Below, piece by piece: positions 10,351 to 56,900 of a stretch of DNA of 64,000 nucleotides; position 1 is the stretch's first letter, and each line of letters begins with the position of its first letter. The notes under the pieces are model-generated. The model worked only from the letters and a program-made list of their open reading frames with translations. It was not told where the DNA came from and ran no database searches. The DNA is from an uncultured Thermoplasmatales archaeon (GTDB taxonomy: Archaea > Thermoplasmatota > SW-10-69-26). Position numbers and translations under genes: made by a program. The stretch is from assembly GCA_964396185.1 (NCBI GenBank), contig CAYNEI010000001.1, positions 76,014-140,013 on the forward strand. The letters run 5' to 3'.

Positions 10351-10359
10351 GGACATATT

Positions 10360-13773: not shown

Positions 13774-13788
13774 CTGCGGCACACCTTC

Positions 13789-13830
13789 GGTGGGGGCCTG
13801 TGGCCCCCACCGATGCTCTTCTCTTATTCT
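13789..13830 (+). terminator. Hairpin plus T-rich tract downstream of copy 5
   Basis: ggtgggggcc (13789-13798) pairs perfectly with ggcccccacc (13802-13811), loop tgt, then gatgctcttctcttattct. Confidence 0.6.
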
Positions 13831-29181: not shown

Positions 29182-32100
29182 CTAACGTTCATCGCCGTCA
29201 GGCGATGCGGACGCGTCCGCATCGCGGGCGAGCACGGCCTGGAGCACCCAGCCGGCCACCCCGATGAGCACGAGCATGATGAGAAGCAAGGGGATCCAGC
29301 CGATGGGGTCATCGATGTCCACGGTGCCGGCCTGCGCGATCTCCACCTCGCCATCCTCGGTGACCATGCGCACGGTGAGCTCGTAGTCGCCGGCCTCCTC
29401 GAAGGTGAACGTGGCCGTGCCCTGGCCGGGGCGCTGGACCTCGATGGGCGCGCTGGCGACCTCAGCACCGTCCCGGGTGGCCACGGCGGTCAGCTTGCTC
29501 GCCGCGCGCTCCCAGGTCACGTTGATCTCCACGGGCTCGCCCGTGTCCCGGTCCCCATCGGCCTTGGCGTGGAGGAACGGGCCCTGGCCGCGCAGGAGCA
29601 CGGTCTCATGCGTGACGGTCTTCCCGTGGGCCTCGGCCCGGATGTGGACCAGGAGCTCGCCGCGCCAGTCCGGGAGCTGGATCGCGCCGTCCTCGATGGG
29701 CACCGTGGTCTCGCGCTCGGTGACACGGTGGCGCACCGTGATCGTGGTGTCCAAGGCGTCGTTGTCGGGATCGTCCACCGTGATGGGGAGCGTGTCCCCG
29801 TCGCGCTGGCCCACGGTGATGGTGGGCTCGGCGTCCTGCACGGTCAGACGCTCCGTGAGGGCGGCCTCGTTGCCCACGCGGTCTTGGGCGGTGAGCGAGG
29901 CCACGATCCGGTCCCCGCGCACGACGTTGTCCAGGGCCACGCGGTGGGTGCTGGAGGCCAGGGGGACGGGCAGTGTGGTGCCATCCACGGAGAAGGTGAG
30001 GGTGTCGAGGCCGCTGAGCTCTTCTCTGGCGGTGACGAGCACCTCGTGGCCCTGGATGTCCAGCAGGAGCTCCGGGGCCTCGTCGTCGAGCACGAGCTCA
30101 AGCGTGCGGTTGGCCTGGTTGCCCACACCATCGGTGGCCTGGGCGTGCACGGGGCCGCTGCCGAGCTCCCTGGCCGGCAGGGTCTCTCCGACGGGATCCA
30201 GGGAGAGGCGTCGGGGGAGCACGAGGTCGAACGCCGTGACCTCGCTGACATCGTCGGTGGCGGTGAAGGTGAGATTCGCTGTGGAGCGGGCCAGGATAGC
30301 TGTGGCGTTGCGCACGCCCTGGTCGGAGGTGATCTCGATGCGGGGCCCGCGCAGATCCGCGGTGAGCTCTTGGGAGGCGCTGGCTCCTTGGCCGAGATCA
30401 TCCACCGCGGTGACCGAGAGCGTGGCTTGCTCGCCGTGGAGCAGCGACGGCAGGTCCACGCTGATGTGCAGGCCGCGCTCTAGCAGCGTGACGCGCTCGC
30501 GCAGATCGGCCAGGCGCTGTCCGTCCTGGGTGGCCGTGATCGTGACGTTGCTGGGGCGCACGCTGCGGTCCTCCACCGTGATGGTGAGCTGGGCGGTGGA
30601 GCCCACGACGCTGGCACCGGGCAGGCGGATGCGTGGCTCTTGGGCGCGCTCGACCGTGAGGTTGGCGGTCTCGGTGGCTTGGTTGCCCCAGTGGTCGGTG
30701 ACCTCGACGGTCAACGTGTGGTTGCCGGCTTCCAGGCCGGGCACGGTGAGGTTGAACGCCGCTTCCAGGCTCTCGTGAGCGGCCAGCTCCATCTCCCCAT
30801 CGAGCACGCGCACGGTCAACGGTGGCGTCTCGTCGGTGGCCGAGAGGTCCACGTGGACCGGCAGGCCAGCTTCCTGGATGGGAGCACCCCTGAACCCGTT
30901 GATCTCCAGGTCCTCGAGCACCGGGGCTCGGGGCTCCCGGATGTTGTAGACGAGCAGCTCGCGCGAGATCGCACCGGCCACGTCCTCGGCCACGATGTGG
31001 ACCTCGTGGCGGCCGGGGCGATCCGTGGGCAGGGGGATGGAGACGTTCTGCTCCGTGGTGTTCGAGGCCAGCACGACCCCGTCACCGGTGGTCACGTTCC
31101 AGGTGATACAAGCCTCGACGCGCTGGCACCCGTCATCGGTGATGTTGAGACGGGTGTGGATGACCTGGTCCTCGTCGGCCTCCTCGGGAGGCGCGTCGAT
31201 CACCTGGATCGACGGGGGCTCGGGGTCGAGCTCAAGCTCCACGAAGCCGTCCAGCGTCGCATTGTTGCCATCCCAGTCCACCACGAAGAGATCCAGCGGC
31301 CCCGTGGGGGTCGAGGCCTCGATGGGGAGGGTGAGTTGGACATCGCGGGTGCCGTTGAAGGCGTCGGTGAGGCTGGCGCGAGCCAGCTCGGTGTCCTCCT
31401 GGGAGACGACCACGGAGCGCATGCCACCGCGCCGGTCGGTGATGTTGACGTCCAGGGTGACGTTGCCGCCCACGGGCCCGAAGAGCGTTCCCTCGACGGT
31501 GCCGGGGTCCGTGTCCACGTGCCGGATGCGCGGCGCGTTGGGGTTCCAGGTGGTGATCGAGAACGATTCGCCGCGCTCGACCTGAAGCGTCGGCTCCCCG
31601 CGGGTGCTGCTCACCGGGGTGCCGTCCACGCTGACGAGCTCGACGAGCCAGCCCTGCCAGGGCGCCCCGTCTCCCCAATCCCGGTAGTGCTCGGTAACGT
31701 CGAAGTTGAGCGGGATGTTCGAGGCGCAGTCCTCGCGCGTGTACGTGGTCGTGTGTGGGTCCGTGGTGTTCGGCAGGGTCTCCCACGTGGTGGTGGTGCC
31801 CCACGGTTGGAGCACGCGGCTGGCGCGCAGCGTGAACTCCCGGTCGCACTGCTTGGTGAACGTATCGGAGAACGTGAACCCCTTCAATTGGAGGGTCGCC
31901 TGCGAGAACGTCGCGTTGGTGTAGCTCGGGAGGAAGAACGGTTTCAGGAAGGCGATTTGGTCCTCCCGGATCTCGTAGGAGAACCCGTCGATCTCGCGTC
32001 CTCCAGCCCCGGTGTCGTCCACGACCACGACGCGCTCGATGCTCATGACCGTGGTCCGCTCGCCCTGCTGTTGGCCGGGCTGGGCCTCGGCCGGGGGTGT

Positions 32101-32643
32101 CAGGGGCACCAGCGCCAGGGCGACCAACACGGCCAGCACCGTGACCGTGATGGCACTGGTGGGGGTGGAGCGGCGTTGGTGGATGAGCGTGAGGATGCCC
32201 CAGGCGGCCAAGAGCAGGAAGGGCGCGCTCACCGCCACGCCAAGGCCTTGGGCTAGGTCCAGGCTCTCGCGCCCGCTCTGGGTGGTGAGCGCTGCCAGGG
32301 CGACCAGCAAGCTGGCCAGGAGCAAGAGAGCTGGGAGCAGGAAGGCCTTAAGCGGTGGGGGTGGCGTGGCCTCGCGGCGGGCTCTGGCGCCCTCGAAGAG
32401 GAGCACCGCGCCGAGAGCGGCAAGCACAGCCGGGATCCAGTCCATGGGCAGCGGCGGGGGGATCGTGGCGGCCAGGCCCGTTGCCAGGGCCACAAGGGCG
32501 AGCCATTCGCGGCCCCAGACCACGGCGATGAGGCCGAGCACGCTGGCGGCTGCGGGGAGAAGCGTGGTGCTGGCTTGGCCGAACAAGGGGTCCGGTGATG
32601 CGGTAAGCAGGGTGCCAGCGCCCACGAGCAGGGCGCCGAGCAC
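29182..32643 (-). CDS. Polytopic membrane protein (about 6 N-terminal TM helices) with a large extracellular Ig-like repeat region and a C-terminal TM helix (1153 aa); last gene of the giant operon
   Basis: The hydrophobic N-terminal 190 aa are followed by ..RASRVLQPWGTTTTWETLPN..FDVTEHYRDWGDGAPWQGWLVEL (tentatively DNRLRE-like). Repeats of about 90-100 aa follow (..HEVHIVAEDVAGA.., ..HTLTVEVTDHWGNQATE.., ..LSVTAVDDLGQGAS.., ..AQATDGVGNQANRT.., ..LTAQDRVGNEAA..), with many N-x-S/T sequons. The end is IPLLLIMLVLIGVAGWVLQAVLAR. The GTG start at 32643 has no obvious SD, so the start is uncertain. Confidence 0.8.
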   Translation of the reverse strand: MLGALLVGAGTLLTASPDPLFGQASTTLLPAAASVLGLIAVVWGREWLALVALATGLAATIPPPLPMDWIPAVLAALGAVLLFEGARARREATPPPPLKAFLLPALLLLASLLVALAALTTQSGRESLDLAQGLGVAVSAPFLLLAAWGILTLIHQRRSTPTSAITVTVLAVLVALALVPLTPPAEAQPGQQQGERTTVMSIERVVVVDDTGAGGREIDGFSYEIREDQIAFLKPFFLPSYTNATFSQATLQLKGFTFSDTFTKQCDREFTLRASRVLQPWGTTTTWETLPNTTDPHTTTYTREDCASNIPLNFDVTEHYRDWGDGAPWQGWLVELVSVDGTPVSSTRGEPTLQVERGESFSITTWNPNAPRIRHVDTDPGTVEGTLFGPVGGNVTLDVNITDRRGGMRSVVVSQEDTELARASLTDAFNGTRDVQLTLPIEASTPTGPLDLFVVDWDGNNATLDGFVELELDPEPPSIQVIDAPPEEADEDQVIHTRLNITDDGCQRVEACITWNVTTGDGVVLASNTTEQNVSIPLPTDRPGRHEVHIVAEDVAGAISRELLVYNIREPRAPVLEDLEINGFRGAPIQEAGLPVHVDLSATDETPPLTVRVLDGEMELAAHESLEAAFNLTVPGLEAGNHTLTVEVTDHWGNQATETANLTVERAQEPRIRLPGASVVGSTAQLTITVEDRSVRPSNVTITATQDGQRLADLRERVTLLERGLHISVDLPSLLHGEQATLSVTAVDDLGQGASASQELTADLRGPRIEITSDQGVRNATAILARSTANLTFTATDDVSEVTAFDLVLPRRLSLDPVGETLPARELGSGPVHAQATDGVGNQANRTLELVLDDEAPELLLDIQGHEVLVTAREELSGLDTLTFSVDGTTLPVPLASSTHRVALDNVVRGDRIVASLTAQDRVGNEAALTERLTVQDAEPTITVGQRDGDTLPITVDDPDNDALDTTITVRHRVTERETTVPIEDGAIQLPDWRGELLVHIRAEAHGKTVTHETVLLRGQGPFLHAKADGDRDTGEPVEINVTWERAASKLTAVATRDGAEVASAPIEVQRPGQGTATFTFEEAGDYELTVRMVTEDGEVEIAQAGTVDIDDPIGWIPLLLIMLVLIGVAGWVLQAVLARDADASASPDGDER

Positions 32644-32669: not shown

Positions 32670-33890
32670 TCAGATCTTCACCCCCGCACCGTGGGCGTGG
32701 CTGACCACGCCCAACGGGAGCTCCACCAGGGTGACCTGGAAGCCACGCAGAGCTTTCACGTTCTCCTCGTGGTTCTCGTAGAGCTCTTGTTCGAGCTCGT
32801 TGGTGGGCTCGGGCACGTTGGGCACGAGGGCTGTGACCGCGCAGTTATGCGCGAGCAAGAGGATCACGCCGTCGAGATCGCCTGGGTGCATGAACGGTGA
32901 GCACACGAGCACCTTGGCGCCCTCGTGGAGCCGGTGCATGTTGTCCCGGATGGCCGGCTCCAGCGGGAAGGTGCCCTCAGGCTCCATCTCGGCCAACTGC
33001 TGGAAGTAGCGGGCCTTGAAGGCCGAGGATCCGTCGCTTTTGAGCGCCCTGGGCTCTTGGCCCAGGAACAGTGCTGTGAAGGAGTCGCCGCCCTCGCTGG
33101 CCAGCCGGTAGCTCAGAGCCCCGGAGCGGGCCACCTCGTGGATGGGCGCGTCCTGGAAGGGGCCCATGGCGGTCCAGAGGCGGTGGTCGATGACGGCCAG
33201 GGCTTGCGTGGATCGCTCGTCCTGGTACTGGTTGACCATGAGATCGCCTGTGGCGGCCGAGGCCTTCCAGTTGACCAGGCGCAGGGGGTCCATGGGCAGG
33301 TACTCCCGGATGCTGTAGAACTCGCTGCCGGACCCGGGTTTCGTGCTGGAGAACTTGCCGGGCCGGGGGTAGCTGTGCTTGGGCCGGCCCACGGCGTCCC
33401 GGGGCCGGGGCTCGGAGGGGAGCACGGTGAGCGTGAGGCTCTCGGCCTGGATGTCGAGCACGCGTTCGACCAGGCGGAAGGGGTCGCTGGCCCGCACCTC
33501 CAGGGGTGCAAGCGTGTAGGAGCCGCGCACGGGGGTCTCGAGCTCGAACTCAGCGGACAGGGTCTCGCCTTTGCCCAGCACGCCCTGGACGCGGGCTTGG
33601 CCGTGGAGCACGATGCCCTGGGGGAGCGGTTGGTGGACGTCCACGCGCTGGAACCCGCCTGTGGAGGCCACCTCGTAGGTGAGCTCGGTGCCGCTGCCCT
33701 CGGGGATGCGCTCGTTGGCCGCACTGCGCGTGGCCTCGACGCGGATCTGGCGCGCGCTGATCTGGGCGGCCAGGGCCACCGCAAGGCCTGTAGCACCGAG
33801 CAGGGCGAGCACGAGGTGGTTGAGCGCGGCGGCCGCCACGAGCGCAGCGGCCGAGAAGGCGATGACGGTGATGCCTCGCTTGGTGATCAT
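32670..33890 (-). CDS. DUF58-family protein (406 aa)
   Basis: Two N-terminal TM helices are followed by the diagnostic core GSGSEFYSIREYLPMDPLRLVNWKASAATGDLMVNQYQDERS (G.EF...R.Y..GD..R.I.W..SA+...L.V+.). GGAGG lies 7 nt upstream. There is an ATGA overlap with the upstream gene. Confidence 0.85.
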   Translation of the reverse strand: MITKRGITVIAFSAAALVAAAALNHLVLALLGATGLAVALAAQISARQIRVEATRSAANERIPEGSGTELTYEVASTGGFQRVDVHQPLPQGIVLHGQARVQGVLGKGETLSAEFELETPVRGSYTLAPLEVRASDPFRLVERVLDIQAESLTLTVLPSEPRPRDAVGRPKHSYPRPGKFSSTKPGSGSEFYSIREYLPMDPLRLVNWKASAATGDLMVNQYQDERSTQALAVIDHRLWTAMGPFQDAPIHEVARSGALSYRLASEGGDSFTALFLGQEPRALKSDGSSAFKARYFQQLAEMEPEGTFPLEPAIRDNMHRLHEGAKVLVCSPFMHPGDLDGVILLLAHNCAVTALVPNVPEPTNELEQELYENHEENVKALRGFQVTLVELPLGVVSHAHGAGVKI

Positions 33891-34936: not shown

Positions 34937-37900
34937 GCCACCAACCCCCGGTCGCGCAGGTGGGTCTGGATGCGCTGGAGCTCGGTGATGGCCTGCCCGC
35001 GCATGTCAGGGGTGACCTGGTTGTACCAGGCGCGCTCGAAGAGCTCGATGAGGCCCATGACGGCTTCGTCGTCGAGATCGAGGCTGTCGACGAACCGGTG
35101 GCCGAACTCGCGCACGGTGTCCGTCTCCTGCTCGGGCTCGCCGAGCACCTCAGCGATGGCCCGCATGCGCAGGTACGCGCGGTAGATGGCTGCCTGGAGC
35201 TCATCTCCGAGCATGAGCTGGCGTTCCAGGTCCTCGAGGACCTCTTCGATCTGGCGGCCGACGCGCAGGCGCTGGATCACGCGGTGGAGGATCCAGGCGT
35301 CTACAGCGATGAGGAGGACCGCGGCGGTGAGGATGACCCAGGTCAACCCGCCAGGCGGCTGGGCGGCGGTCTCGGCGAGGTTGACCGTGGCCTCTGCAGG
35401 CGCATGGCTTGCATCGCCCCGGTAGCGGGCCACGAGCTGGCTGGGCTCGCCCTGGAACTGGATGACAGCGCGGCCCTGGTCGTCGGTCTCCTTCGTGATG
35501 GCGGGCCCGTCCAGGCTGGCCACGGCGACCACCGCGTTCTGCAGCGGCCCGTCAGGCGTGCTGGCTTCCAGGGTGAGGGTCACGCCCTGGCCGCCGCGCT
35601 CGATCCCGACGCTGAGCTCGACGGGGACCAGGGGGGCCACGAGCACGGTGGTCTCGCTGGGGGCCCAGGCGTCGTCGCCTGGCGTGGCCACGGTGAGCGC
35701 GAAGCGTTGGCTGGAGGTTGCCAGCGACGCGATGGCATCGCTGGGGATGTTGACATCGAAGCTGCCGCGTGCCCGGGTGGTGGCCAGCACCTCGTCGTTG
35801 GCCAGCACTTGGATGGGCAGGTTGACCGGCTGGCCGGTGTCGTGACTGGTGACGCGGCCTTGGATGGAGAGGCTTTGGCCGCGCACCCACACGAGCTCGC
35901 CGGAGGTCTCGATCTGGGTGGGGCTTCTGATCTGGACGGTGACGAAGGCCTCGGCGGGGGTGTGCTCACGGGTGCCGTCGAAGCGGGCTTGGATGGCATG
36001 CTCGCCGGGTTGGGTGTCCTCGGGGACCTCGAGCGTGAGGCTGGCCGAGCCCTCTCCGTCGGTGCGCACGGTGCGGGCCTCGCCCAGGGGCCAGTTGACC
36101 TCGATGGGTTGGTTCGGGATGGGTTCGCCTTGGTCGTCGACCAGGCTCATCTCCATGTTGACCACACCGGCTGCCGGCTCAACGGTGGCCTGGGCGGTGA
36201 GGTTCGAGGCGGCTTGCACGATGAGGTTCAGGTTGCCCTTGGAGGAGAGGATCCCGGGCCCGGCGGTCTCGTAGGTGACCGTGAGGGGTCCGGCGGGTTG
36301 GTCGGCGGGGAGCTCGATGGGGAGCCTGGCTTGGCCCTGTGCGATCTCCGCGGTGGTTTGGAAGCCCGGTGCCTGGAGGGCCACGCGGGCCTCGGGCACG
36401 GGTCGGTCCATGGCGTCGACCAGGGTGAGGTCGAGCTCGGTGGGGGTGCCGCGGGGCACGCGAGTGGGTTGGGCCGAGAGGATCGTCTCGGAGTGGATGG
36501 TGACAGGCGCGGTCGTGTTGGTGGGCTCGTAGCGTTGGCTGCCGAAGACCGAGACCTCCACAGTGGCTGGCCCGATAGCTCCCGACACGGGGAGCGAGAT
36601 GCCGGTGACCCCGCTTCTGCCTTCCATGGTGGTGGCATCCGCCAGGCCTCCCAGGCGGATGGTGACGTCCAGGTCCTCGTCTGGGGTGGCACCACCCAGG
36701 TCCTCGACGTTGATGGTGAAGGTGCTGGGGCGGCCCAGGATGAGCTCGGGGTTGGAGATGTCGACGAGGAGGCGTTGGCGCACGGTGATCTCGCTGGCTT
36801 CGGTGGCGGGACCGAAATCGTTGGTGCCCAGGAACTGGGCGACCAGGTCCTTGGGGCCTGGCTGGATGTCGCGCGGGACATCCAGCGAAACCGTCGCGCG
36901 GCCGTCCAGGTCCGTGGTGCGGTTGACGGTGTGGCCGGCCAGGCTGACCTGCAGGGGTCCCTGGATGCCGTTGCCTTGGGTGTCCGTGGCTTCCACGGTG
37001 ATCTTGACGCGCTCGCCGGCGGTGAGGCTGGCGGGTTTGTCGATGAACTCGAGCCCTGGGACTGGGAGCACGTTGAGGTCGTGGGCCAGCTCGCTGCTGA
37101 TGAGCTTGCCCCGCTCGCCGGCAGGCGCCGTGTAGCTGAACTGGATCGTCACCGGCGTGGCTCGGTCCACGTCCGGGAGCGCCACGGGCGCGGTGAACGT
37201 GCCCTGGTCACCGAGTCGGTAGGTCTCCGTGCCCTCGGGGCCTTGGACCTCGAGGCTGCCTTGCGTGACCGGGTCCGTGGCTGCGTCGAGCACGGTGCCG
37301 GTGAACTCGACGCTCTCGCCTGCGCTGCCAGCGCTGGGTGGGGTGTCGAGCTCGATGGTCGTGTTGGCTTTGACGAAGACCTGGCGTCGGTCCACCGCGC
37401 CCACGTCCTCGCCGTCGCCCATGGCCCAGGCCACGATGGCCGGGTTGTTCTCGGGCGCGGCCTGACTGGAGGCCAACGGGTTGAGCGGGGTGAGCGAGCG
37501 GTCCCAGTTGGGTTGCGCGCTGCCGAACCAGGTGCGGCCCGTGCCGGCCAGGTTGGTGGAGGTGGACGTGCTGTCGAGATCGCAGCCTGTGGTCTGGATG
37601 CGGCCCTGGCTGTCGGTGATGAGGATGCAGGCCACCCGGGCCTGGTCGCTGAGCAGGCTGAGCTCGCCGTCGTTGACCAGGCGGCTGGATTCCGAGCTGG
37701 TCATGGCCACGATGGCCACGGGCACGTTGCTGGCGGGGTCCCCGTTGTGCGTGACCTCGATGTCGAGCAGGATCGCATCGCCCTTCCAGACGATGTCGCT
37801 TGGGTCCGCGGCTTTCCCGGCTTGGTTGAGCTCCACGTTGAACGCGCTCTGACCGGCTTGCCCGGTCCACTCGAGCGGCGTGGCCGGCGGGCAGGTGATG

Positions 37901-44000: not shown

Positions 44001-44997
44001 GTTCCAGGGCGACGACGTAGATCGACGTGGACCCGGTCGGGGCGGGTGCGAGCAGGGTGCGATCGGCGGAGTGGCCGTGGATCCCGGAGAGGGGGATGAC
44101 CTTGCGCTTGTCTGGCTCGCCACCGGAGCTCGCGTACGCAGGACCAGGCCACGCGTAGACGGCCACAGGCGTGGAGGCCTCCACGCGCACGGGCTGAGCC
44201 TGCTCGCCTGTGTTGAGGCTGCAGGTGACCCACTGGGACGGGCTTACGCTTCCGCTGGTGCACGCGATGGGCGCCCATCCCTCGGGGGTGAGCTGCTGGG
44301 CCTCGACGCTGCCGGTGTAGCCGCTGCCGATGGCCAGGCGCACCGCGCCTTGCGCGATGCCGATGTTGCGGTGGCCCGCGCCTGGGCCGGCCAGCGCTTG
44401 CAGGATCTGGTGCTCGCGCACGGGATCGCGGGGCAGGGGGTCGTCGGTGCCGTCCTCCTCGCGGTCGAAGTAGATGAAGTAGTCGTCCACGCCGCGCTCG
44501 GCGGCGAAGGCGACGGTGACCACGTCGTGGCCGGCCTCCACGGTGCCCGGCGGCTCGAACGGGGCGCCATCCCAGGCCAGGTGGCTCAAGGGTTCGGCTT
44601 CCCCGTCGGCCGGCACGACGCGGATGCTGTCCATGTCAACGGTGAACCGCAGCGGTTGATCGGTGACGGCGTCCAGGGGCCAGTTGCCGCGCTGGAGCAC
44701 CTCGGTGACGTCGAGCGCGTGGGCCACCACGCGCTCGCCGGACCATGTGCTCGGGTAGGCGCCGGTGAGCGAGAGGCTCAGCGGGACGCGGACCTTGAGG
44801 GTCTCGTCGTACCAGGGCGCCCAGTCCTCGGGGGCAGGCGCGATCGTTGTCCCGGAGGTGGTCTCCCCGTCGTCCCCGGTCTCGTCTGCATCCCCTTGCG
44901 CGGTGATGGGGACCGGGAGCAGGAGAAGGGCCAGCAGCACCACGACGAAGGTGGGAAGCGCTTGGGCGCCGGTGCGCCTGCGCGGGGCCCTGGTCAC
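41017..44997 (-). CDS. Giant anchored surface protein (1326 aa) with CARDB/NEW3-like beta-sandwich repeats
   Basis: Signal peptide is MTRAPRRRTGAQALPTFVVVLLALLLLPVPITAQG. C-terminal-half repeats of the V.N.G....v.l type: RTLEIDVENRGNAAGEAGLAL, FKALVSVTNTGDAPARDVSLVLTSD, ATANLVLANRGSPVNVRI. The C-terminal anchor is APLPWSLSLVALLAAWGVLWRRRNL. The GTG start overlaps the upstream stop (GTGA). Confidence 0.85.
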   Translation of the reverse strand: MTRAPRRRTGAQALPTFVVVLLALLLLPVPITAQGDADETGDDGETTSGTTIAPAPEDWAPWYDETLKVRVPLSLSLTGAYPSTWSGERVVAHALDVTEVLQRGNWPLDAVTDQPLRFTVDMDSIRVVPADGEAEPLSHLAWDGAPFEPPGTVEAGHDVVTVAFAAERGVDDYFIYFDREEDGTDDPLPRDPVREHQILQALAGPGAGHRNIGIAQGAVRLAIGSGYTGSVEAQQLTPEGWAPIACTSGSVSPSQWVTCSLNTGEQAQPVRVEASTPVAVYAWPGPAYASSGGEPDKRKVIPLSGIHGHSADRTLLAPAPTGSTSIYVVALEPCPGGCSVTPTPGGAPSALSVGIPREIPLSQPALLEANGPIIGWLQGSGRGPANLPVGITPNATFAGMTSPEVMDRFEPRLSATGDDGARILLTDEDGSVSAERRFAQGQPVNPAHDLTATTWTQVADFQGRGFMLQAENTLYWPQLLEADVQGSTDVPDQVSGITQLGPTPVGATGWIGEDPSPHSRSEASRESVRLISLPFQGEDSLRIALSTQEQAGIIVEDGKGGSASPLATEALRYSEDGNSKESGTIDIDGALAEVFAAGTTGPLAAFAIYGDLDDSKPGNVRDAVSGLFAGQLEGVPAEEGAPDILGALFQLAIEPPDVFARPGETVTLSLMGTGFIQRVDGSRAELSLSFSTNTSGGPPGLPPDLLLASSSATLDPSELTKVTDLQVKLPAQYPPDALPTTYAVAVTGDPEGVEGDDVTTRSTLTVRVKRDVSLTFEDGTHETALETEDGRATTPLILRNLGTGPQAVTLTISMPPVQGWSVEVTERGAPVSSLTLPPGGQARLELAIDAPEGTAVVLPVTVSAQGTQDASVSDSVTAQVVHNVELDVDARILPDLVSLPRGATATANLVLANRGSPVNVRISPLETEGLQLEAARSSVNLGEEGTGVENATIPINLTVAPDAPLGAVLVGTVEALYGRGQDLEPTRQLLSLRARVVPVHDLSVVDRIDALPGLEQPVRVDVLNEGDVDERLELTVLRAPLNWQVDLPDVLEAPQNTTTPLRFNLTLPPGIPAGSESIRLLADPASAGEDLTITIPVRVLDGPAFQFELPDQLEMGLGERRTLEIDVENRGNAAGEAGLALDGPGVESTAIPEAITLGPGDTDTISLRLAATELGNHTLVGTIDPSPAHELTVRVGQVAFELDVVSTDPAPPRPGEPFKALVSVTNTGDAPARDVSLVLTSDEGPLVNETIGMLAPGRSATITLATQSLPTLDGLQVLVDPEGRYENAGATTTGLPGAGADAPLPWSLSLVALLAAWGVLWRRRNL

Positions 44998-47900
44998 TCG
45001 CGGCGCACCCCCTTGGCAGCCAGCGCCACGAGGGAAGCCGCTGCCAGAAGGAACAGCATGGAGGGGCCCGGCACGGTGGACACCGTCTCGGAGCCGAACC
45101 GGGAGCCGGCCACCTCGACGCTCTCGATCTGGCCGGCCACGTCGTTGGATTGGAAGGCCTCCAGGTTCACCGCGCCCAGGCTAAGCGTGCCCGAGCGGGG
45201 CAGCACGACGTCGTGGCTGACGAGCTGGGTCTCCCCGGGCTCAAGCAGGCCGATCTCCTGGGTGCCCACGAGCTCTCCGTCCACCAGGAACCCGAGCGGC
45301 GTGTTGTTCAGGGGTTGGCTGCCCATGTTCTCGGCGTTGGCCACGATGGTCACCGTCATGCCTTGCTCGAGGTTGACGCTGGGTCTCAGGTTGATGGACG
45401 CAACGTGCACGTCCGTGGGGTCCGGGCCACTGGGGAGCTCGGCCTCGTAGAGGCGCGTGCCGGCCAGGTCCTCGAGCACGAGCTGGCCCGGGGTTCCAAG
45501 CTCCGGGCTCCAGTCGTAGCGCACGGTGGTCTCTTGGCCGGGTTGGAGCGAGACCACGGGGCTCGACGAGAGCACGGCGGCACCCTGGATGGTCAGGTGA
45601 CCGGCGGCCGGCGCGTTCCCGATGTTGGACAGGTTCGTGGACAGGGCCAGGGTCCCGTTGATCCCGCGCCGTGGCTCGGTGTCGTCCATGGCGAAGGCCG
45701 GGGCGCGCTGCACCGTGAACCGCACGGTCTCGTTCGTCACGAGGTCCTCGCTCTCAAGGCGCAACGCGACATCCTGGGAGCCAGGCAGGGCACCCTGCTT
45801 GACCGTGAGCGGGAGCGTGAGGGTGGCGTTGGTGGCCGTCGGAAGCTCCACCTCGGCGGCCCCCGTGATGTTGTCGCCTTGGGCGACCAGCGTCCCGCGC
45901 AGGGGCACGTTGCCGGTGTTCTCGACGCTCACCTGGATGGGCGTGGTGCCGGGCTTGATCCGGGTGGTGGAGAGCTCGAAGCTGGCCTGGGCGTCGCGGG
46001 CCACCTCGAAGGTGATGGCCTGGGCCTTGGGTTGGGTGGGCAGGCGCGCGGTGCGCTCGCCAGGGGAGCTGCCCTCGGAAGCGAAGAGCAGCACGGTGAC
46101 GCTCTCCTCGCTGCCAGCCTCGACGGTGAGCGGCTGGTCGAGCACGGCAGCCATGGCGAAGGAGTCACCGACCACGGGCTCCACGCCGATCTGGGCGGGC
46201 ACGGTCCCGTCGTTGGAGACCGTGGCCTGCACCAGGGTCGGCTGACCCGGCTTGATCGTGACGCCCTTCTCCAGGGAGACCTTGAGGCCCGCCTTACGCA
46301 CCTCGACCTCCTGGGTGAACGTGTTGTCGCGGGCTGCCGAGGTCCCGTCGACGCGGATGGCCTTGAACTCGTTGGGGGCCTGAACCGAGGCGATGACCAC
46401 GATCTCGCCGGCGGTGACCGGGATCCAGTCGGCCTCGATGACGTGCTGTTGGCCAGGGTCGATGTCCGGCAGTTCCACCGTGAGGTCCTCGAGGATCGGG
46501 AGCAGCCCGTTCTCGGTGAGGGTGAGCTCGGCGCTCGTCGCCGGCACGCCACCCTTGTTCTCGATGACGATCTGGATGGGCACGCGCTCCCCGGCCGTGA
46601 CGGCCTCGGGGATGCCGCGCAGCTCCACGGCCAAGTCAGGCCGCTGGAGCGGGGTCACGTCGATGATCTTGTCTGCAACGTTGTTGCAGCCCACGCCCGG
46701 CAGGCACTCGGCCTCCTCGTAGACCAGGCCCTGGAAGGCCCGGAGCTCAGGCGTGGCCAAGACGGCCACATCACCCTCGTCGGGGTCGGCCACGATGCGC
46801 AACCTGTGCTCGCCGGGCTCGAGGGGGTTCCACTTGAAGAGAGCCTTGACCTGTCCGCCTGGCGGGATGCTCACCGTGGTCTCCTTCTCGCCGGTGAGGC
46901 TCTCGAGCACGCGGAACCCGCTGGGCCCGGAGACGCTGGCTTGGACGGCCACGCCCTTGGCTTGGCGCTCGCCCTTGTTCTCGACGGTGACCGAGAACGC
47001 GGCCTCGCGCCCGACCTCGAGGTTCTGGACGCTGATGTCCTCGGGCACCACCGAGATGTCGGGCCGGGGCTCAGCGTCGGTGGAGATCTCCGTTCGGCCA
47101 GCCGACTGCATGCCGCCAAGCCCGCGCAGAAGCGCCTCCCCGCTCTTTCCCACAGAGGCTTCCACGTTGTTGTCCAGCGCGGTGAGGTAGGCGTTGGTGC
47201 CTGTGCCAGAGACCGCGCCTGGGGCTTGGAGGGGGTAGGCGACGATGTCGAGGTTGACCGTGGGCCCGCTGGAGCGTCCAGCCGGGATGTTCACGCGCCA
47301 GGTCCCTTCGACCTCCGTGTGCTGTGCCAGCTCGATGGGCTCCATGATCCCGGTCTCGGAGTCGTAGAGGATCTCACCCTCGGGGCCCGTGATCTGCATC
47401 TCCCAGGAGCGCGGCACTTGCGTGCCGGGGACCACGTGGAACACATCCGAGCCAGCACCCGCGTTCTCGAAGGTGAAGCGGAACCGCTTCTCCGTGCCGG
47501 GCCCGGCCAGGATCTCCTCCTCGGCCACCGTGACCTGTGGCATGGCGCTCAGGATGCCCGGCTGGTCGACGAGCACGCGGGACGGGGCGTCGGTGTTGCA
47601 GTTGTTGACCACGAGGTAGAACTCCACGCTTGCCGCGCCTGCAGCGAACAGGGGCGCCATCTCGTCGGCGGTCAGCGGGTAGACGGCGGTGTGCCAGGCC
47701 GAGAGGAGGTTGGGCTGGCCGGTGCCGCCGCGGGTACCGTAGGCGATGTCCGCCTGCTCGCCCTCCAGGGCCCACTCGGCTGGCGTGTTGCGACCGGGCT
47801 GGTTGGCCTGGTCGACTCGATCGCAGATGTCCATGTCTTGCTGGTTCTCATGCGCCTTACGCTTGATCGTGGGGTCCGGGCTGTAGCCAGCCAGGGTGCA

Positions 47901-50900
47901 CAAGCCGCTCGTCGGGCTCTCCGTGGTGCACGCGTCGAGGTGGCCCCCGTTGTTGGCTCGAGCCTCGGCGACGACCGCCATGGAACCGTAGTTCGCTCCA
48001 GAGGTGATCGGGTGGTTGGCCAAGCTGCGCTGGTGCTGGAAGACCAGGGCAGGCACTGGGCCCTCCTTGCCACCGTGCAGGTCGAGCATGTCACGCAGAT
48101 CCCCCGTGCTCATCTCGGCCAGCAGCATGGCTTGCACCTCGCCGCGGTCAGCCGTGACCAGGTAGCCCTCCTCGCTGGGCACTTGGCCTGGCAGAGCGGG
48201 CTTGGCGAACTCGGGATCCATCTCGATGTCCCCCTCGCCTCCTGCGGGGGCTGGGCCGGAGACATCGTCCATCTCGTGGTCCTCGGTGGCGCGGTAGTCA
48301 TCCCAGGCCTCGGTCAGATCCGACTCATCGTTGTCCGGGATCCCCTGCTGGACCTGGGCGAGCACGGTCATGCGCGTGTTCTCCTGGCGGGGGAGGTCGA
48401 CGGGCACCGTGATCTGCTCCTGGGGGGTCCAGGGCAGAAGGATGGTGGATGGGATCGGGGTCGAGCCCACAGCGCGGTTGTTGCGCTGGGTGATGAGCTC
48501 GCCGGCCAGCTCGACGGGGGCGCCCGTGGGGTTGGTGAACGTGAGGATCGCGTTGCGTGGCGAACCGGCGGGCGCGCGGTCGGGCGTGATCTCGATCTGG
48601 GCCAAGCCGGGCGCCTGGAGCGCTGCGGGGCCGATGATGTCCAGGGTGACGTGGTCGTCGGCCGGGTTGGGGTCGACGAGCTGGCGGCAGGCGAAGCGCT
48701 CGTGCTCGGCCAGGTCCTCTAAGTCCGTGGGGCAATCTCCCACGCTCTGGGTGAGCTCCTCTGGGAAGCTTCGCACGTAAACCCGCATGGAGACGATGTC
48801 CTCGGGGACCGCTGGGTCCTCGCGATCGCGCAGCTCGGGGTGGGCATCCCGGATCTCAGCCCAGGGGACCGTGATCGTTGCAGAGCCGCTGCCCTCGTCG
48901 GGGTCCACGTCCACGTCCCAGGTGTGGTTGTGCTCCAGGGGGTCTTGGTCCAGGTGGAAGCGGCGCTCGAGGCAGCGCGGGTTGCGGTGCTCGTCCTCTT
49001 CGGGGTTCTCAAGCTCGATGCAGACCCCGACCTCGAGCTCCCAGTTGGCCTGGGACCGGCCGGGTTCCTTGACGTCGATCTTGAGCTCGGGGATCACATC
49101 AGGACCGAGCACGCGCTGGTTGCGGAAGAACGTGGAGCCTACGAGCTCGGCGTCGACGCCGTGGGTGAACCGGGGCTCCATGGTCTGGACCGCGGTCTCC
49201 GCGAGCTCGAAGACCCCCTCGTGGATCGTGTCGTCGGTGAGCCCGCGCAGCGTGGGCTGGTAGGTCTTGGCCTTGGGGGCGGCCAGGAGCAGCTCTGTCG
49301 TGGCGATGCGCATGCTGCCCTCATCGTCCGGCGACCAGATGCGCAGGCCCACCCGTGTGATGTGGCCGGCCAGTGGCGTCAAGTCGGCGCAGACCGTCCT
49401 GTTCGTGGTCGAGCTGTCGACCCGGGCGACGTCACCGGGCAGGGGCCCGACCAGGCGGTTGGCGTTGGCGCCCAGGGGTGTCGGAGCGCGCTCCTCGTCG
49501 CTGTCCGCGCGCAACGGGCTGGTGCAGTCGAAGCTCCAAGGACGAGCATCGTCGGGACCAAGGAGCTTGAGCGGCTCCCAGTCGACGCGCGCGGGGGCTT
49601 GCTCGCCGAAGGCCTCCGTGGACTCCACTGGGATGCCCACGACTTGCACGCGGTTGCCGCTGCCGTTGGCCGTAGCGTTGAACCGGAGCACGGCGGTGGC
49701 GTTGGCCGCGCTGGCCGGATCGTCGCTGCCGTTGCAGTTCGGGTTGTCGTCGTTGGCGCTGGTCTCGAGGCAGCCGCGCACGGCGCGGATGTCCAGGGTG
49801 GTGGCCGTGTCCACGTAGCGGAACGGGTTGGGCAGCCGCTGGTCGTCGTCGCTGCAGCCGGTGCGCTGGACCTCACCGTCGATGGTCTCGGTGTCCCAAG
49901 CGATGCAGCCATCGCGGTCAGGCAGGATGAGGTCCTCGCGGGACTTCTCCTGGTCGTTCTCGTTGACCCACTTGAACCGGTCTTCCTTGAGCTCGCGCTC
50001 CCGCATGAGCGGGGAGATCCACTCCTCTGCATCCGTGAGCTGCCCGAGCTCGGCCTCGGTGGCGGGCGCGATGGTGCGCGCGCTGGAGCCGCTCCACTGG
50101 ATGATCTGCACATGGCCGCTATCGCCGCGGCTGGGGTTGGGGCCGGTGGTGCACACGCCCCAGTACCGCGGCACGTTCACGAATTCGAAGTCGTAGCGGT
50201 CCAGGCAGCGGTCACCGTTGTCGCCCACCTCGCGGTCGCCGACCCGGGAGGGGCCCATGGCGACATCGGGGCTGGAGTCGTCGGTGCCGAACTTGGTGTT
50301 GACCTCGCCGATGAACCAGCCGAGGTCCATGGCGTTGGTGTGGTTGGAGTAGCCGTCGAGCGCGAAGATCAAGTGCGCGTTCGTCGGGAGGGACTTGTGC
50401 ACCCCGCTCAGGGGGCAGGAGCCGAGCGCTTCCCCCTCGAACTTCGTCTCCTTGGTCCACGGGCGCTGCTGGTCGAGGATCTGCTCGATGGCTGGCCGGA
50501 GGTCGATCTCGTAGATGACGCGCGTCCAGCCGGTGCGGTGCTCGTCCTGGAGAGCCGTGATGATGCGGCCCGGGAGTCTGGCGGGATCACCATCGCCGGT
50601 GGGGCCGACGAGCTGGTTGGTGAAGAAGCGCACGGAGGGATCCCAGGTGTCCTCCATGATGCGGCGCTCGAAGGTCTCGACAAGCATCTTGGTGGCGCCC
50701 TGCTCGACCTGCTCGGCCATGGAGCACCACTCGCCCGTCTTGAGGGGGAGGCGGAGCTCGTGGTGGACGGGATCGTTCTCGTCCGTCGCCGAGAGGTAGG
50801 GTGCGGTGGGGAGCCAGAACGCCCGGCGACCCTCGCTGGGGGGCTCATCGAGCGTGAGCCCGCCGAAGTCGTCCCATGCGTCGGGCGCGATGCGCTTGGC

Positions 50901-53900
50901 AGGCCGCATGTCCCCGGCGGCCAGATCCGTGGACCAGGCCCGCACGGGCTCGTTGTGCTCTCCGGTGATGGCGGGGACGGCCTCGCCAGCGCGGGCGCCA
51001 GCGTGGCTGGAGGCAAGCACCTGGTCGGGGCTCACAGCCGTGTGGAACGGATGCGTGGTGTCCCGGCGGTCCACGGCCTCGGAGCGCTCGGACCAGTTGA
51101 CCGCGACACCGTCGAACCCGGTCTCCAGGTCGATGGTGCCGTTGAGCATGAGCGCGGAGACGGGCGAGGCCACCAGGTCGAGCTGGCCGTCCAGCGGCAG
51201 GTCCTCGCGGGCCTGGCTGGGCACGCGCAGCCCGTCGCCGAAGCGTGGCTGGGGGGTCAGCGTCCAGTGGTCGTAGTCGCCGGCCTGGCCGGTGATAGCC
51301 TGCTGGGTGAGCACGAGGAGGCGGTCGCCGCCTTGAGCGATCAGCGTGGCCTCGGACGAGCGGGATGCAGCCGGGTTCTCGGCTGTGGCCGTGACCAGCA
51401 CGGTCTGGCTGCCTGCATCGCGCGGCGTGATGAGCACCCTGGCGGTGGCGTTCTTTCCTGGCAGCAGCAGCGGGATCGGCTCGTCTGCGAGCCGCTCGGT
51501 GCCAGCCGGGTCCAGGGCCACGGTGACGGTGACGTTGCGAAGCGGCACGTTGCCCTTGTTCTCCACGAGCACCGGGATCGGGATCTCGTCTCCCGTGATG
51601 GCCGTGCGCGGCGGATCGATGTCGCTGACCACCAGGCGCGGGAGCGACCGCGTGAGGCCCGTGAGACGGACCACGTTGTCGCCGGGATTGGGGTCGTCGG
51701 TGGCCACGGGGGCCTCGAGGACCTCGAAGGTGACTGGGAGTACGCGCTGGCCGAAGGGAACGCCGGCCTGGCGGAACAGGACCAGGGCCACGTAGGTGCC
51801 GGCCTCGAGGTCCTCGAAGACGACGCGGCCGGTCTCGGAGCCCTTCTGCTCGAGGTTGCCGTCGCTGGTGGGCACGCGCACGGTCCAGAACGGTCGATCG
51901 CTGTTGGACGCGACGTTGATGACGACACGGCTACCTGGCGCGCTGGCGGTCACCTTCGCGGTGACCTCCGCGCCCTGCTCCTTAGCCATGCCCTTGGGGG
52001 CCGGCGAGAGGAACGTTTCCGGGGCCTTCTGGCCCCAGGGGTCCTCCAGGGTCGCCTTGACCACCGCATCAAGGGGCTCGATGTCCACGTTGCGCTGGAC
52101 CGTGATCTCGGTCCAGCTCACGGTGATGTCGCCGGAATAGCTGTCCTGGATGGTGGTCTCGAGACCCTGGCCCTCCACCACGAGGGTGTACTCACCAGGG
52201 AGCTCCACCGGGATCGACAGCTCCTCGTCGGTATCGCCGTTGTCGACGTTCATGGCACCGATCTCTTCGCCTTGCGGGTCGATGACGCGGAAGGTGAGCC
52301 GGGTGGCACCACTGTCCTCCGGGATCGTGGCCGTGACGTCGACGAGGGCCTCGTCTTCGTTGACGTCGAAGAAGTACTCCTTGTGGTAGAACGGGTCGGG
52401 GACGACCTCGCCGATGGGGGTGATGGAGGAGCGGGTCTCCAGCTCCGCGCGGTCGGCGGGGTTGCGCGTGCCCTCAGCGGTGATGGAGAGCTGGTTCGTG
52501 CGTACCCTCACATCGCTGCGCTCCCCGATGATCTCGTGGTCGAAGTTGCGCCTGAGATCGTCGCCGCAGTCGTCGCCGTCTACGCCGGTGGCGCGGATCA
52601 CGAGGCTGCCGTCGTCCATGCGCGTGGTGGGCAGGAGCTCGGGCGCCTCGCTGATGGGCTGACCTGGCCCGGTCTGCACGGTGAGCCGGCGCTCGAAGCG
52701 GTCGAGCTCCTCGTCGGGGGCCTCCCAGCCAAGCGAGCTGGTCTCGAAGACCATCTGCTTGCCTGGTGGCAGGCCTGGGAGCCCGGTGTCCGGGTCCTGG
52801 AGCGCGATGGGTACCACGGTGGGCGGGATGACGTCCCCGTGGCTGTCCTCGGCCACGCACCCGTCGTTGTCCAGGATGACGCGGCGCACGGTGGCCTCCT
52901 GGAGGGTCGAGGCGCCGGTGTTGTTCACGATGAGCTTGAAGCGCTCCTCGACGCCTGGCGCGATGAAGGGGGCCGGGTCGTGGTCGGCAGCGAGGTCCAG
53001 GGGCGGGGCGCCCTCGCGCACGTTCCAGTCATCGACGCGGAGCTGCCCGGCCGAGCGGGCGTGTTTGGCCAGGCCCATGGCGTGGATCTCAAGGACCACA
53101 CGCTGGCCCTGGAAGGGGGTGAGGTCGAACTGCACGTCCGTCCAGTTCGTCGGCAGCGCGAAGACGGGCTCGTCGTGGCCGAAGACGAGCTCGGTGGGCA
53201 CGCAGGCGTTGGTGGGATCCGGGACGAGGAAGCTCGCGGAGCCCCCGAATTCCGTTTGGAAGCAGTCCGCCAGGAGGGCGGCGTCGAAGTTCACGTCCGT
53301 GAGCTCCCTGAAATCGGCTTGCTTGACGATGGCGGGCGGGGTCTGGTGAGTGGCTGTCCCGTTGAACAGCACGGGCACGTTGCCGTCCTCGACCTCGCTG
53401 CAGTTGTCGTAGCCGCCCAGGGGCTCGATGGTCTCGGCGGGGCCAAGGCTTCCATCGGCAAGCACGGGCCGGGCGCGGACGTTCCAGCCCACGCGCGTGT
53501 AGACGGTGCCGTTGGTGGAATCCTCCTCTTTGTCGCATGCCTTGCCGACCGCGTCGGGGAGCTGGGATAATCGCGTGTGCATCTCTGAGACGGGAGAGGC
53601 GTAGCCGCTGAGATCGAGCACCGGGCTCTGGAGAACGCCGTAGGTCACGGGGTCGTCGGTTCGGATGGACACGCGGCCACTGGGGTGGACGTGCTTGACC
53701 GGGGTGGTTGAGGCTGACTCGGCCTTGAAGTGATCGTGGGTCTGGGTGAACTCGGACGGCCTGTCGTCGCCCAGGGCTGTGCCCCTCCAGACGAACGCGC
53801 CGGGAGCCACGCTGTCCGGGTTGCCGCCCAGGGGTTCGAAGTTCCAGGGGAGCGTGAGGTTCTCGCTGGCCGGGAGGAAGCCCCAGCCCTGGATGCCCGT

Positions 53901-56900
53901 GGGGGGCAGGGCACTGGTCGGCTTGCTGCACGCGTACGAGGCGGTCAGCGGCGCATCGCACAGGCGCTCCATGCGGATCTCGACGCCGGCGCGCTCGTGC
54001 TGTACCGTCATGTTGTCCACGGTCCACACGGGCACGGCATCGGGGGACCAGCCCAGCTCGGGCCGGGTCTTGATGAACGGATCCTGCTTGCAGACGACGA
54101 CCGTGTTGTCAGCACTGGAGCAAGCGTTCGGGTTGAGGGTACCGGTGGCGGCCCGGGCTTCCAGCTCGGGGCGCACGCGCTCAGGTCGCTCGGTGACCGC
54201 TGCGCTGGCGAGCACGTCCTCGAAGTTGCTCACGGTCTCCAGATCGAAGACGACGTAGAACTTGCCCTCGCGGATGGCTTCCGTGGCGATCCCCGTCTCA
54301 AGGGCGCCTGGACCTTGGTTCTTGAGGATCGCTTGCCGGATGACCTCGGTGGCCGTGAGCTCGATGTGCTCCCAGCCTGAAGGCTCGGTGAACTCGACAG
54401 CGTCCACGGCCCCCTGAAGCTCACGGAGCGCCAACGCGTGGGCGCTCACATCATCCTCGGGGAGCGCGCAGTCCACGAAGGCGGGCTCAGACGGGCACCC
54501 CTCCTCCACGGTGCGCACGTACCCCGGTGCGCCGCAGATGTTGACCGGCTGGCCCGGCTCGCTCACGATGCCGGTGTCGTCAAGGCCCTCCAGGATCCCG
54601 ATGACGCCGCTGAGCTCCTCGAGGCCCAGGATCTGGCAGGCATCTCCCGGGACCTCGCGGATGCCGGGGATCTCGAAGACCTGGTCGAGCAGGGCGTCCA
54701 GGTTGGCTTGCCCTACCACCTCTTCGACCGCAGCGCGCAGGGTCGCATTCGGGATACCCTCGATGGTGACGTTCTGGACCTCGCGGAAAGCATCCACCAG
54801 GTCGGTGTCGTTCTGGGTGGGCACGATGAAGGCGCGGGCCCGGCTGCCGGTGCCGAGATCCTCGGCCAGGGAGTCGTAGAGGGCCTTGGTTGCGTGGTCG
54901 AACTCGACGCTGAGCTCATCACCAGGCTCCCAGCGCTCGGAGAGCACCTCGCTTGGATCAAGCTCGTAGGCGATGAGGTGGTGCTGGCGCACCTGCCACG
55001 TCTCAGGCACGGCGACCAGGCCCGTCTCATCCGGCAGATCGAAGCCTGCCTTGCCATCCACCAGGGAGGCGCAGAGAGCATCACCGACGAGTGGGACGTC
55101 GTTGACTGGGCCGATGCCCACTGTGGTCTGGTCGCAATCCTCGCCGAGGCCGACGAACGCGTGGTCGGCGAAGCCGCTGACGTCGCGGCTCGCGTCGATC
55201 TGGAGGTCCGCGCCGCTCGTGGCCAAAGCGCTTTCGCCCTGGAGCACGAACCGCGTCTCCGGCCCGCGGAAGCTGTCCAGCAGGTCCTGGGTGTATGTGC
55301 CCTCGGGTGTCTCGAAGGTGCCGTTGGGCAGCAGCGAGGTGGGGCCCTCCTTGACGCCGGTGACCTCCTCGGTGAGCGCGGGCGGGGCTGCCGTGTCGAA
55401 GGGCACGACCACGCTGGCCTGTGCCCCTGGGTCCACGGGGGTCTCGAGCACCAGCGCCCAGACGCCGGGCTCCGGGAGCTGCACGTCGAAGCCGACGTTG
55501 GCCTCCGGTGAGACAGCGCCCAGCACGTTGACGTCGCGGCTGTGGGGGACCGTGGTCCGGCCCACCTCGCCCAACGAGATAGCCTCGTCTGCCCGGGGCA
55601 GGCGCGTGATGCGATCGATGGGGATCAGGGTCCCTTGGACCGGGACGGAGAGCGGCGTGTTGCCGCGGTTCTCGATGGTGGCGTTGAAGCTGGCTGTACC
55701 ATCCTCGACCCCCTCGGCGGCCACGGAGAGATCGATGTCCGTGAGCTCCTCGATCGTGGTGGTCACGGTGGCTTCGTTGTTGAGCTGGTACGGGTCGCTG
55801 GGGATGGGCGTGCCGGGGGCCTGGCCCGGGGGCACGATCTCGGCCGTGATGTTCAGCTCGCCGAACGCGTCGGCAGGGAAGGAGATCGTGGTGACGTTGC
55901 GCTCCACGGGCTCAAGGGCCGGGATGGCCACGCGTCGCTCCATCTCGCCGCTGCGCACCACGAGGTCCACGGGGTTGCTGGTCAGCCGGCCGAGGTTGAC
56001 GACCTGGACCTCTGCTGGCACTTGGCCTTTGGGGAACGAGGAGTCGTGCGTCGGGTGCTCGATGAGCACGGCGATGTCCGTGGGGGGTCCAGTGTACTCG
56101 AGCCCGAAGGCGTCGATCCACCAGCCGCCGTCCTTGGTCGTGATGCCGGGTCCACCTGTGGCGTGCAGGCGGATCTCGACGCTCTCACCCGCGTACGGGG
56201 CAAGATCGAACCAGTGCTCGACGAACTCGGGGTTCTGGCTCCCGGCAGGCGCGCTGGTACCGATGAACCCGCGGCCTTCGCCTCGGATCACACCGGGGTA
56301 GCCGTAGAACTGGGTCGCCCCTGTGGCGAAGCTGCTCGTGTCGATGTTGACCTGGATGCCCTCCGTGCGGGCGGTCCCCTCCTTGGATCCGGGGTGCGTG
56401 GTGACCCAGAGCAGGCTCTCGCAGAACTTGGCCCACTCGGAAGGCCTGCTCTCTTCGCCGAGGTCCATGTCCTCGTCGCTGCCAGGGGAGGTGAACGGGA
56501 AGACGCCGACGCTCCCCCGACCGCGCTCGGCCTGGAAGTTGGAGGCTGCACCGCAGAGGATCTTCTCGCCGTCGGCGCGCGTGGCGTATGCAGCCACCGG
56601 GTCCAGGCGCGTCCACGAGTCGCCGGGGGTGCGCACCTCGAGCCAGCCACCGTCGCGGCCGTGGATGGACGCGGGGTCCTCGAACTGGTAGGCGTGACGC
56701 ATGGTGAGATGCAGCGCGCCAGCGCCAGCACGCAGGGTGGGGACGTCGATCTCCTGGGTGCCCATGATGAGGTTGCGGCAGACTTGGCGCAGCGGCATGG
56801 CCCCTGTGTCCAGGAAGCCTGGCCACGCCGAGCAGGTGCCCATAAGCCGGCCAGCCGTCTCGGGGCTAACCCCCTCCTCACGCAGGGCGTTGACCACGCC

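Follow-up and report, generated by a model that had tools for sequence, protein, structure and literature searches.

A membrane module of the arCOG01314 type in an uncultured Thermoplasmatales archaeon probably depends on a MoxR-family AAA+ ATPase that works in trans and whose gene was moved out of the operon. Three parts of the module, the triad of a DUF58 protein, a DUF4350 protein and a DUF4129-like tail, were found in the window, a stretch of 64,000 nucleotides (G000:C1:76014-140013) on the 291-kb contig C1 of genome G000, which is a metagenome-assembled genome (MAG) of 3.17 Mb in 181 contigs that is 89.5% complete. The working ATPase is most likely the single MoxR of this genome without a DUF58 partner, which is encoded on contig C7. 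Our observations concern gene content, gene order, predicted topology, the fold of the DUF58 protein, the one-to-one bookkeeping of genes within the genome, and the recurrence of the split across lineages.

Since no AAA_3 gene lies on the contig and one unpaired MoxR is present on C7, we regard the locus as a gene-order variant of the known arCOG01314-associated system to which exceptionally many surface-protein genes are attached, and not as a new kind of system. An earlier reading of the window made from the letters alone (the sequence-only reading) had proposed, as one of two options, that the locus works either in trans or independently of an ATPase. The in-trans half of this proposal is now the better supported one, with one lone MoxR and one lone DUF58 in the genome and the same state recurring in four other genomes of the family.

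The triad and the unpaired MoxR gene

The triad lies on the minus strand at 32670-35346 and is composed of a DUF58 protein of 406 amino acids (aa), a DUF4350 protein of 349 aa, and the transmembrane (TM) helix and DUF4129 tail of a 2027-aa surface protein with immunoglobulin-like (Ig) domains and TSP3 repeats. The DUF58 gene (32670..33890, minus strand) matches PF01882 over residues 194-354 with 39.2 bits against a cut-off of 23.4, and a six-frame scan of the genome recovered it at the same place with 39.5 bits. The DUF4350, or arCOG01314-type, gene (33887..34936, minus strand) matches PF14258 with 49.1 bits (cut-off 30.4), and its product also has a weak match to ABC_transp_aux (GldG-like). 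The hydropathy profile of this protein reveals an N-terminal signal or TM segment (4-36), an ectodomain, a single C-terminal TM helix (~281-303) and a short acidic cytoplasmic tail. NCBIfam held no model for the DUF58 or the DUF4350 protein of the window locus.

The third member, a TM helix followed by a cytoplasmic DUF4129 tail (34936..35355, minus strand), makes up the last 140 residues of the 2027-aa protein. Its match to PF13559 is borderline (24.1 bits for the whole protein and 26.3 bits for the isolated 140-aa tail, cut-off 24.8), and nine homologous tails all match the same profile, with 27.6-60.4 bits. As a pairwise BLASTP comparison of the tail with the stand-alone DUF4129 protein of contig C12 was not significant, the assignment rests on the Pfam profile. 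The 2027-aa protein has TM segments at residues 13-42 and 1887-1914, with the tail sequence quoted in the sequence-only reading sitting after the latter, and it is predicted to place ~1850 residues outside and the DUF4129 tail inside the cell. Because the junctions between the 2027-aa and DUF4350 genes and between the DUF4350 and DUF58 genes are both 4-nucleotide (nt) ATGA overlaps, there is no space and no gene remnant between the members of the triad. The consecutive arrangement reported earlier was confirmed in this way, with Pfam scores above the cut-offs (borderline in the case of DUF4129) and with the quoted motifs in place.

A six-frame AAA_3 scan of the whole assembly gave no match on contig C1, and tblastn with the four MoxR paralogs of the genome against all of C1 returned nothing better than E = 0.19, so that the absence of a MoxR ATPase first claimed for the 64 kb extends to the entire contig. 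The suggestion that the ATPase gene lies beyond the right edge did not hold: the first gene of the operon reaches just 1.2 kb past the window, to C1:141213, and the 151 kb of contig to the right of the window contain no AAA_3 match. The motif GxxxxGK[ST] was likewise absent from the window's open reading frames (ORFs) of at least 80 aa. In the C7-type clade, the Walker A motif reads PGxAK[ST], with Ala replacing Gly before Lys. This form was seen in 56 of the 57 MoxR genes of the surveyed Thermoplasmatota and Thermococcus loci (L074-L153), the remaining one being without any motif found, and PGLGK[ST] was seen only in C2/C5/C12-type paralogs and some of their relatives. Since a GxxxxGK[ST] text search would miss most of these MoxRs, the profile scan is the relevant test of MoxR absence.

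Elsewhere in the genome, four strong MoxR (AAA_3) genes were detected with 212-220 bits, on contigs C5, C12, C7 and C2, together with four DUF58 genes, on C1, C2, C12 and C5. The C2, C5 and C12 loci share the order DUF4129 (with an Ig protein), DUF4350-like, MoxR, DUF58, and MoxR is immediately ahead of DUF58 in each. This leaves exactly one MoxR without a DUF58 (on C7) and one DUF58 without a MoxR (in the window); the genome-wide search for an orphan moxR gene that the sequence-only reading had recommended therefore found one.

The lone MoxR gene (G000:C7:35805-36989, equivalent to L012:7806-8990, with a probable GTG start near 35967) is located directly downstream of an ATP-dependent DNA ligase gene. 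Its product has an AAA_3 domain (214 bits) and an AAA_lid_2 domain (83 bits), and in the alignment its Walker A (PGLAKS, typical of the clade), Walker B (LLADEIN), ATQNP and SPRGS motifs are intact, so the protein looks functional. No DUF58 or other vWA gene was found near it. In G000 and its relative G001, the ligase-linked MoxR has a TATA-like CTATAAAAA box, conspicuous in DNA of 68% G+C, at a distance of 73-76 nt ahead of its probable GTG start (L012:7890-7905 and L043:6513-6525), and comparable A/T boxes precede the lone MoxRs of G002, G003, G009 and G010. The CTATAAAAA box was not found in the entire 64-kb window, and no promoter motif common to MoxR and the operon was found, which suggests that the C7 MoxR has its own promoter. 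Downstream of the lone MoxR are two paralogous ORFs of 483 and 309 aa (L012:8851-11284 on G000:C7; 33% identity over 154 aa). These were considered as partners of the C7 MoxR and dropped, being without a Pfam match and not conserved in G001-G004.

The DUF58 protein of the window also looks functional, since every invariant residue of the family is kept: it retains 19 of 19 invariant columns in a 10-sequence alignment, including the motif GSGSEFYSIREYLPMDPLRLVNWKASAATGDLMVNQYQ quoted earlier. An AlphaFold 2 (AF2) model with a predicted local distance difference test (pLDDT) score of 81.5 shows helices forming a TM hairpin (4-47), a beta sandwich (51-157) and a vWA-like alpha/beta domain (229-391). 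In Foldseek searches the sandwich matched TRAP-beta and CARDB domains, and the C-terminal domain matched the CLCA1 VWA domain, Rpn10 and the MDN1 MIDAS domain. The PF01882 score and this vWA-like fold behind an Ig-like domain together bear out the DUF58 assignment. At the position of the metal-ion-dependent adhesion site (MIDAS) motif, DxSxS, nine of the ten aligned members have D-x-R and the tenth D-A-T. Basic residues are found on either side of the hairpin, from which the Ig-vWA part is predicted to lie in the cytoplasm, the compartment of MoxR. Residues 176-225 of the protein (window 33216-33365) hold the most conserved sequence of the family, GSGSEFYSIREYLPMDPLRLVNWKASA, yet are the sole internal part of the AF2 model with pLDDT <50; judging from the model, this segment may fold only upon contact with a partner.

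Split and intact arrangements in relatives

The closest relatives of G000, labelled 'uncultured Thermoplasmatales archaeon binchicken_co207_141' (G001) and 'Thermoplasmata archaeon CSSed11_322R1' (G004), carry an orthologous MoxR-less locus in which a giant gene, DUF4350, DUF58 and a homolog of the window's 1153-aa gene follow each other in the order seen in the window. Their DUF58 proteins are 56% (G001) and 51% (G004) identical to that of the window, and in G001 the ortholog of the 2027-aa protein measures 2028 aa within an identical gene order. The second subclade of the family (G002, G003 and G005) has DUF58 without MoxR as well, and 1153-aa homologs follow DUF58 in G001, G004, G003 and G005. 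An ortholog of the C7 MoxR (65-71% identical) is present directly downstream of the DNA ligase gene throughout G000-G004, with no conserved gene beyond it. The split between MoxR and triad is hence shared by the four other family genomes in which both genes were found; in G005, which is 72% complete, a C7-type MoxR was not found.

Two other families of the class, which serve as outgroups, have the full operon. In G007:C18 and G008:C48 the order is giant, DUF4350, MoxR of the C7 type, DUF58; the MoxR is 63-65% identical to that of C7, and the end of DUF58 is ~2 kb from the ligase gene. In the simplest history, it appears that the operon once adjoined the ligase gene, and that in the family of G000 the MoxR stayed in place while the other genes moved elsewhere. 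Intermediate arrangements are seen in G009 and G019, where giant, DUF4350 and DUF58 are followed after a gap of ~0.5 kb by MoxR; in G010, G013 and G015 the split is complete, and each of these genomes has one C7-type MoxR standing alone. Uncoupling also occurs outside the C7-type clade, since a C2-type MoxR on G008:C87 (at 28903) has no adjacent DUF58, the nearest one being 30 kb away on the same contig (at 59681).

In a phylogenetic tree of MoxR, the ligase-linked MoxRs of the family form one clade (98/97), apart from the C2-type clade (99/99), and the linkage state changes at least five times; on this tree, unlinked or reordered versions arose on at least five occasions. The lone DUF58s of the family likewise form one clade in the DUF58 tree (96/92). 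Moreover, the unlinked MoxR and the unlinked DUF58 of G013 are each sister to the corresponding G019 gene with support of 100/99 in both trees, and the pairing of G009 with G012 is mirrored between the MoxR and DUF58 trees. This mirroring is the best direct sign that unlinked MoxR and DUF58 still evolve as pairs. As to the origin of the triad, phmmer scores of the 2027-aa protein are 310-438 bits against giants of C7-type operons versus 115-241 bits against those of the C2 type, a difference that may merely reflect repeat number. Domain architecture was discarded as a discriminator of operon type, with TSP3 repeats occurring in giants of both types.

A survey of GTDB species representatives covered the 80 best loci found there, of which 75 could be classified. 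MoxR directly precedes DUF58 in 57 of these; in the other 18, DUF4350 directly precedes DUF58 and there is no adjacent MoxR. The missing ATPase, described in the sequence-only reading as unusual whichever way it was explained, is therefore less exceptional in the phylum than that wording implied. Most of the 18 MoxR-less loci belong to Marine Group II (MGII; Thalassarchaeaceae/Poseidoniales), of which we examined ten genomes with such a locus. Nine of them (1.0-1.6 Mb) contain exactly two MoxR and two DUF58 genes, arranged as an adjacent MoxR-DUF58 pair together with a lone MoxR and a lone DUF58, and the tenth (0.8 Mb, incomplete) contains one MoxR and one DUF58, which are unlinked. In seven MGII genomes, 33-34 kb of ordinary genes lie between the lone MoxR and the lone DUF4350-DUF58 pair (for example G065:C1:293931-328074). 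In MGII, the lone MoxR is preceded by a gene other than a DNA ligase, and the ligase link therefore does not extend to this group.

A proposed ATPase acting in trans and its alternatives

Since other MoxR-vWA pairs show such a pattern, we propose that a cytoplasmic MoxR hexamer would dock on the vWA-like domain of DUF58, itself tethered to the membrane by the TM hairpin. ATP-driven remodelling would then have two targets, the DUF4350 anchor and the DUF4129 tail that the 2027-aa protein is predicted to hold in the cytoplasm, and in this way the giant Ig/CARDB surface proteins of the same operon would be assembled, anchored or turned over. A MoxR encoded elsewhere would thereby act in trans, through the vWA domain of DUF58, on a trans-membrane assembly that would hold or process the giant proteins, in keeping with what has been predicted for arCOG01314 neighbourhoods (PMC5898192) except for where the vWA protein is placed. 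In RavA-ViaA, CbbQ-CbbO and NorQ-NorD, a MoxR-family AAA+ protein works by way of an adaptor that carries a vWA domain; the vWA proteins of these pairs keep the MIDAS motif and their clients are soluble enzymes. In the DUF58 clade of the window, by contrast, the DxSxS motif is not kept, and the clients proposed here are surface proteins.

Several points weigh against an ATPase acting in trans on this triad. The stems of the family's DUF58/DUF4350 lineage are very long (1.34 and 1.14 in the DUF58 tree, and 1.81 substitutions per site in the concatenated tree), and the DUF4129 tails of G000, G001 and G002 give the weakest scores. Both features could reflect changed or relaxed constraints after uncoupling, and a fast-evolving triad with such tails leaves room for a change of function. 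The approximately unbiased (AU) tests accept a grouping of the family's lone DUF58s with C7-linked DUF58s (p = 0.30) and equally one with C2-linked DUF58s (p = 0.44). The backbone of the DUF58 tree, the concatenated DUF58+DUF4350 tree and the tree of the giant proteins (C-terminal 900 aa) do not settle the position of the triad either, and the trees do not tell from which operon type it derives. In addition, G000 encodes four VWA_2 proteins (on C45, C5, C56 and C8), three of them without an adjacent MoxR, and any of the four could be an alternative client of the lone MoxR. One of these proteins, at G000:C56:8298-10852, adjoins a weak AAA_3-like match (29.8 bits), with which it probably forms a different AAA-vWA pair. 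Finally, the MAG is 89.5% complete.

Much of this would also fit a triad that needs no ATPase and forms, with its giant partners, a passive scaffold or anchor in the membrane; the MoxR beside the ligase gene would then serve other clients or have a new role. Long DUF58 and DUF4350 stems together with the weakest DUF4129 tails (G000, G001 and G002) are what altered constraints after loss of the ATPase could produce, the genome has other vWA proteins without a neighbouring MoxR, and in five genomes the MoxR is always found directly downstream of the DNA ligase gene. We nevertheless consider this explanation unlikely. Every examined genome with a MoxR-less triad keeps a lone MoxR, including the nine MGII genomes of 1.0-1.6 Mb, the sole gap being G005 (72% complete), and it is difficult to see why such streamlined genomes would retain one lone MoxR for each lone DUF58 had the triad no need of an ATPase. 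Furthermore, the DUF58 protein retains all its invariant residues, including those of the signature motif, and the swapped arrangements hold MoxR just ~0.5 kb behind DUF58. In a more specific form, to which we give little credence, the uncoupled and fast-evolving triad would now be an ATPase-independent membrane platform for the 36-kb giant-adhesin operon, and the ligase-linked MoxR of five genomes would have been recruited elsewhere, for example to be co-regulated with DNA replication or repair. If true, this would be a natural case of a MoxR switching its client.

It is similarly improbable that the triad has no dedicated ATPase and is served by one or more of the operon-encoded MoxR paralogs on C2, C5 and C12. 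The paralogs are 48-57% identical to one another and have a DUF58 of their own each; their service would leave the conserved lone MoxR without a partner, and the strict one-to-one numbers in MGII point to dedicated pairs. Speaking for such a service are the in-genome similarities, as the closest copies of the window's DUF58 and DUF4350 are those of C2 (26% and 29%), and the AU test mentioned above, which does not reject a clade of the family's lone DUF58s with C2-linked ones (p = 0.44). An artefact of assembly or binning, or a recent deletion in a decaying locus, might be suspected in a 181-contig MAG that is 89.5% complete. This explanation is effectively refuted: within a contig of 291 kb, the stop of DUF4350 shares a 4-nt ATGA with the start of DUF58, the junction and the gene order recur in the independent MAGs G001 (56% identity) and G004, and all seven genes of the operon are intact. 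The reading we prefer thus remains that of a module served in trans by the C7 MoxR.

Known systems and the giant surface-protein operon

The neighbourhoods of arCOG01314 (DUF4350) have been predicted to encode a 'putative novel secretion or membrane remodelling system' of archaea; an AAA+ of the MoxR/GvpN family belongs to this prediction, and the vWA protein was proposed to be secreted (Makarova, Galperin and Koonin 2015, PMC5898192). The window locus resembles that system in combining a membrane-anchored DUF4350 protein, an Ig and vWA protein (here DUF58) and Ig-like, S-layer-like surface proteins in one predicted operon. It differs in that the MoxR gene is outside the neighbourhood, next to the DNA ligase gene of a different contig and apparently transcribed on its own, and in the size of the operon, which four proteins of 1326 to ~2636 aa bring to ~36 kb. 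In addition, the TM hairpin of DUF58 predicts a cytoplasmic rather than a secreted Ig-vWA part. The C2, C5 and C12 loci of the same genome and the G007:C18 and G008:C48 operons contain the same four families, in the order DUF4129-tailed Ig protein, DUF4350, MoxR, DUF58. Whereas these canonical loci have MoxR between DUF4350 and DUF58, the two genes are joined in the window by their 4-nt overlap. The G007 and G008 operons adjoin the ligase gene, as the lone C7 MoxR does in G000.

A bacterial parallel is provided by the PFNA cluster of Bifidobacterium, which comprises pkb2, fn3, aaa-atp/MoxR, duf58 and tgm and for which a chaperone-for-surface-protein idea has been proposed (PMC8430577). Here too, the gene for a surface protein rich in beta sandwiches is clustered with genes for MoxR partners including DUF58. 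Unlike the archaeal locus, however, the PFNA cluster has a Ser/Thr kinase and a transglutaminase and holds its MoxR inside the cluster; the seven operon proteins of the window gave no Ser/Thr kinase or Transglut_core match.

The DUF4350/DUF58/DUF4129/MoxR module is widespread in archaea and bacteria, and no functional test of it was found in the literature searched. For annotation, the split arrangement means that a DUF58/DUF4350 locus without an adjacent ATPase should not be taken as ATPase-free. With regard to specificity, there are several lineages in which each lone DUF58 is matched by exactly one lone MoxR, alongside two to five complete paralogous modules, and this natural series of split operons lends itself to studying how a MoxR recognises the vWA adaptor that belongs to it. 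The locus also reinforces the link of the module to very large Ig/CARDB surface proteins.

The triad is part of a single minus-strand operon of seven co-directional genes, which are separated by very short gaps or overlap and extend over ~36 kb, from 29182 to beyond 64000. The operon begins with a giant gene whose 3' part is in the window (57290..64000, minus strand; C1:133306-141213), with a stop-to-stop frame of up to 2636 aa. It is followed by a gene for a CARDB-rich surface protein of 4102 aa with CARDB, DUF7507 and DUF11 repeats (44994..57302, minus strand), and by one for a 1326-aa CARDB surface protein with hydrophobic segments at its N- and C-terminus (41017..44997, minus strand). The 2027-aa protein (34933..41016, minus strand) comes next; according to Pfam and a TM scan it consists of a signal or TM segment, TSP3 calcium-binding repeats, Ig-like domains (Big_3_5, Big_1/MG4), a TM helix and the DUF4129 tail.

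Behind DUF4350 and DUF58, the last gene of the operon (29182..32643, minus strand) encodes the 1153-aa protein, for which Pfam and NCBIfam matches and a TM scan gave ~5-6 TM helices at the N-terminus, an ectodomain part with DNRLRE and Ig-like domains, and a TM anchor at the C-terminus. No archaeosortase or transglutaminase signature was detected, and the N-terminus of the homolog of this protein in G005 (probably in G003 too) is merely signal-peptide-like. At the other end of the window, positions 1-16504 hold a series of ORFs without a Pfam match, namely five on the plus strand of 809-842 aa and a sixth that is cut by the edge.

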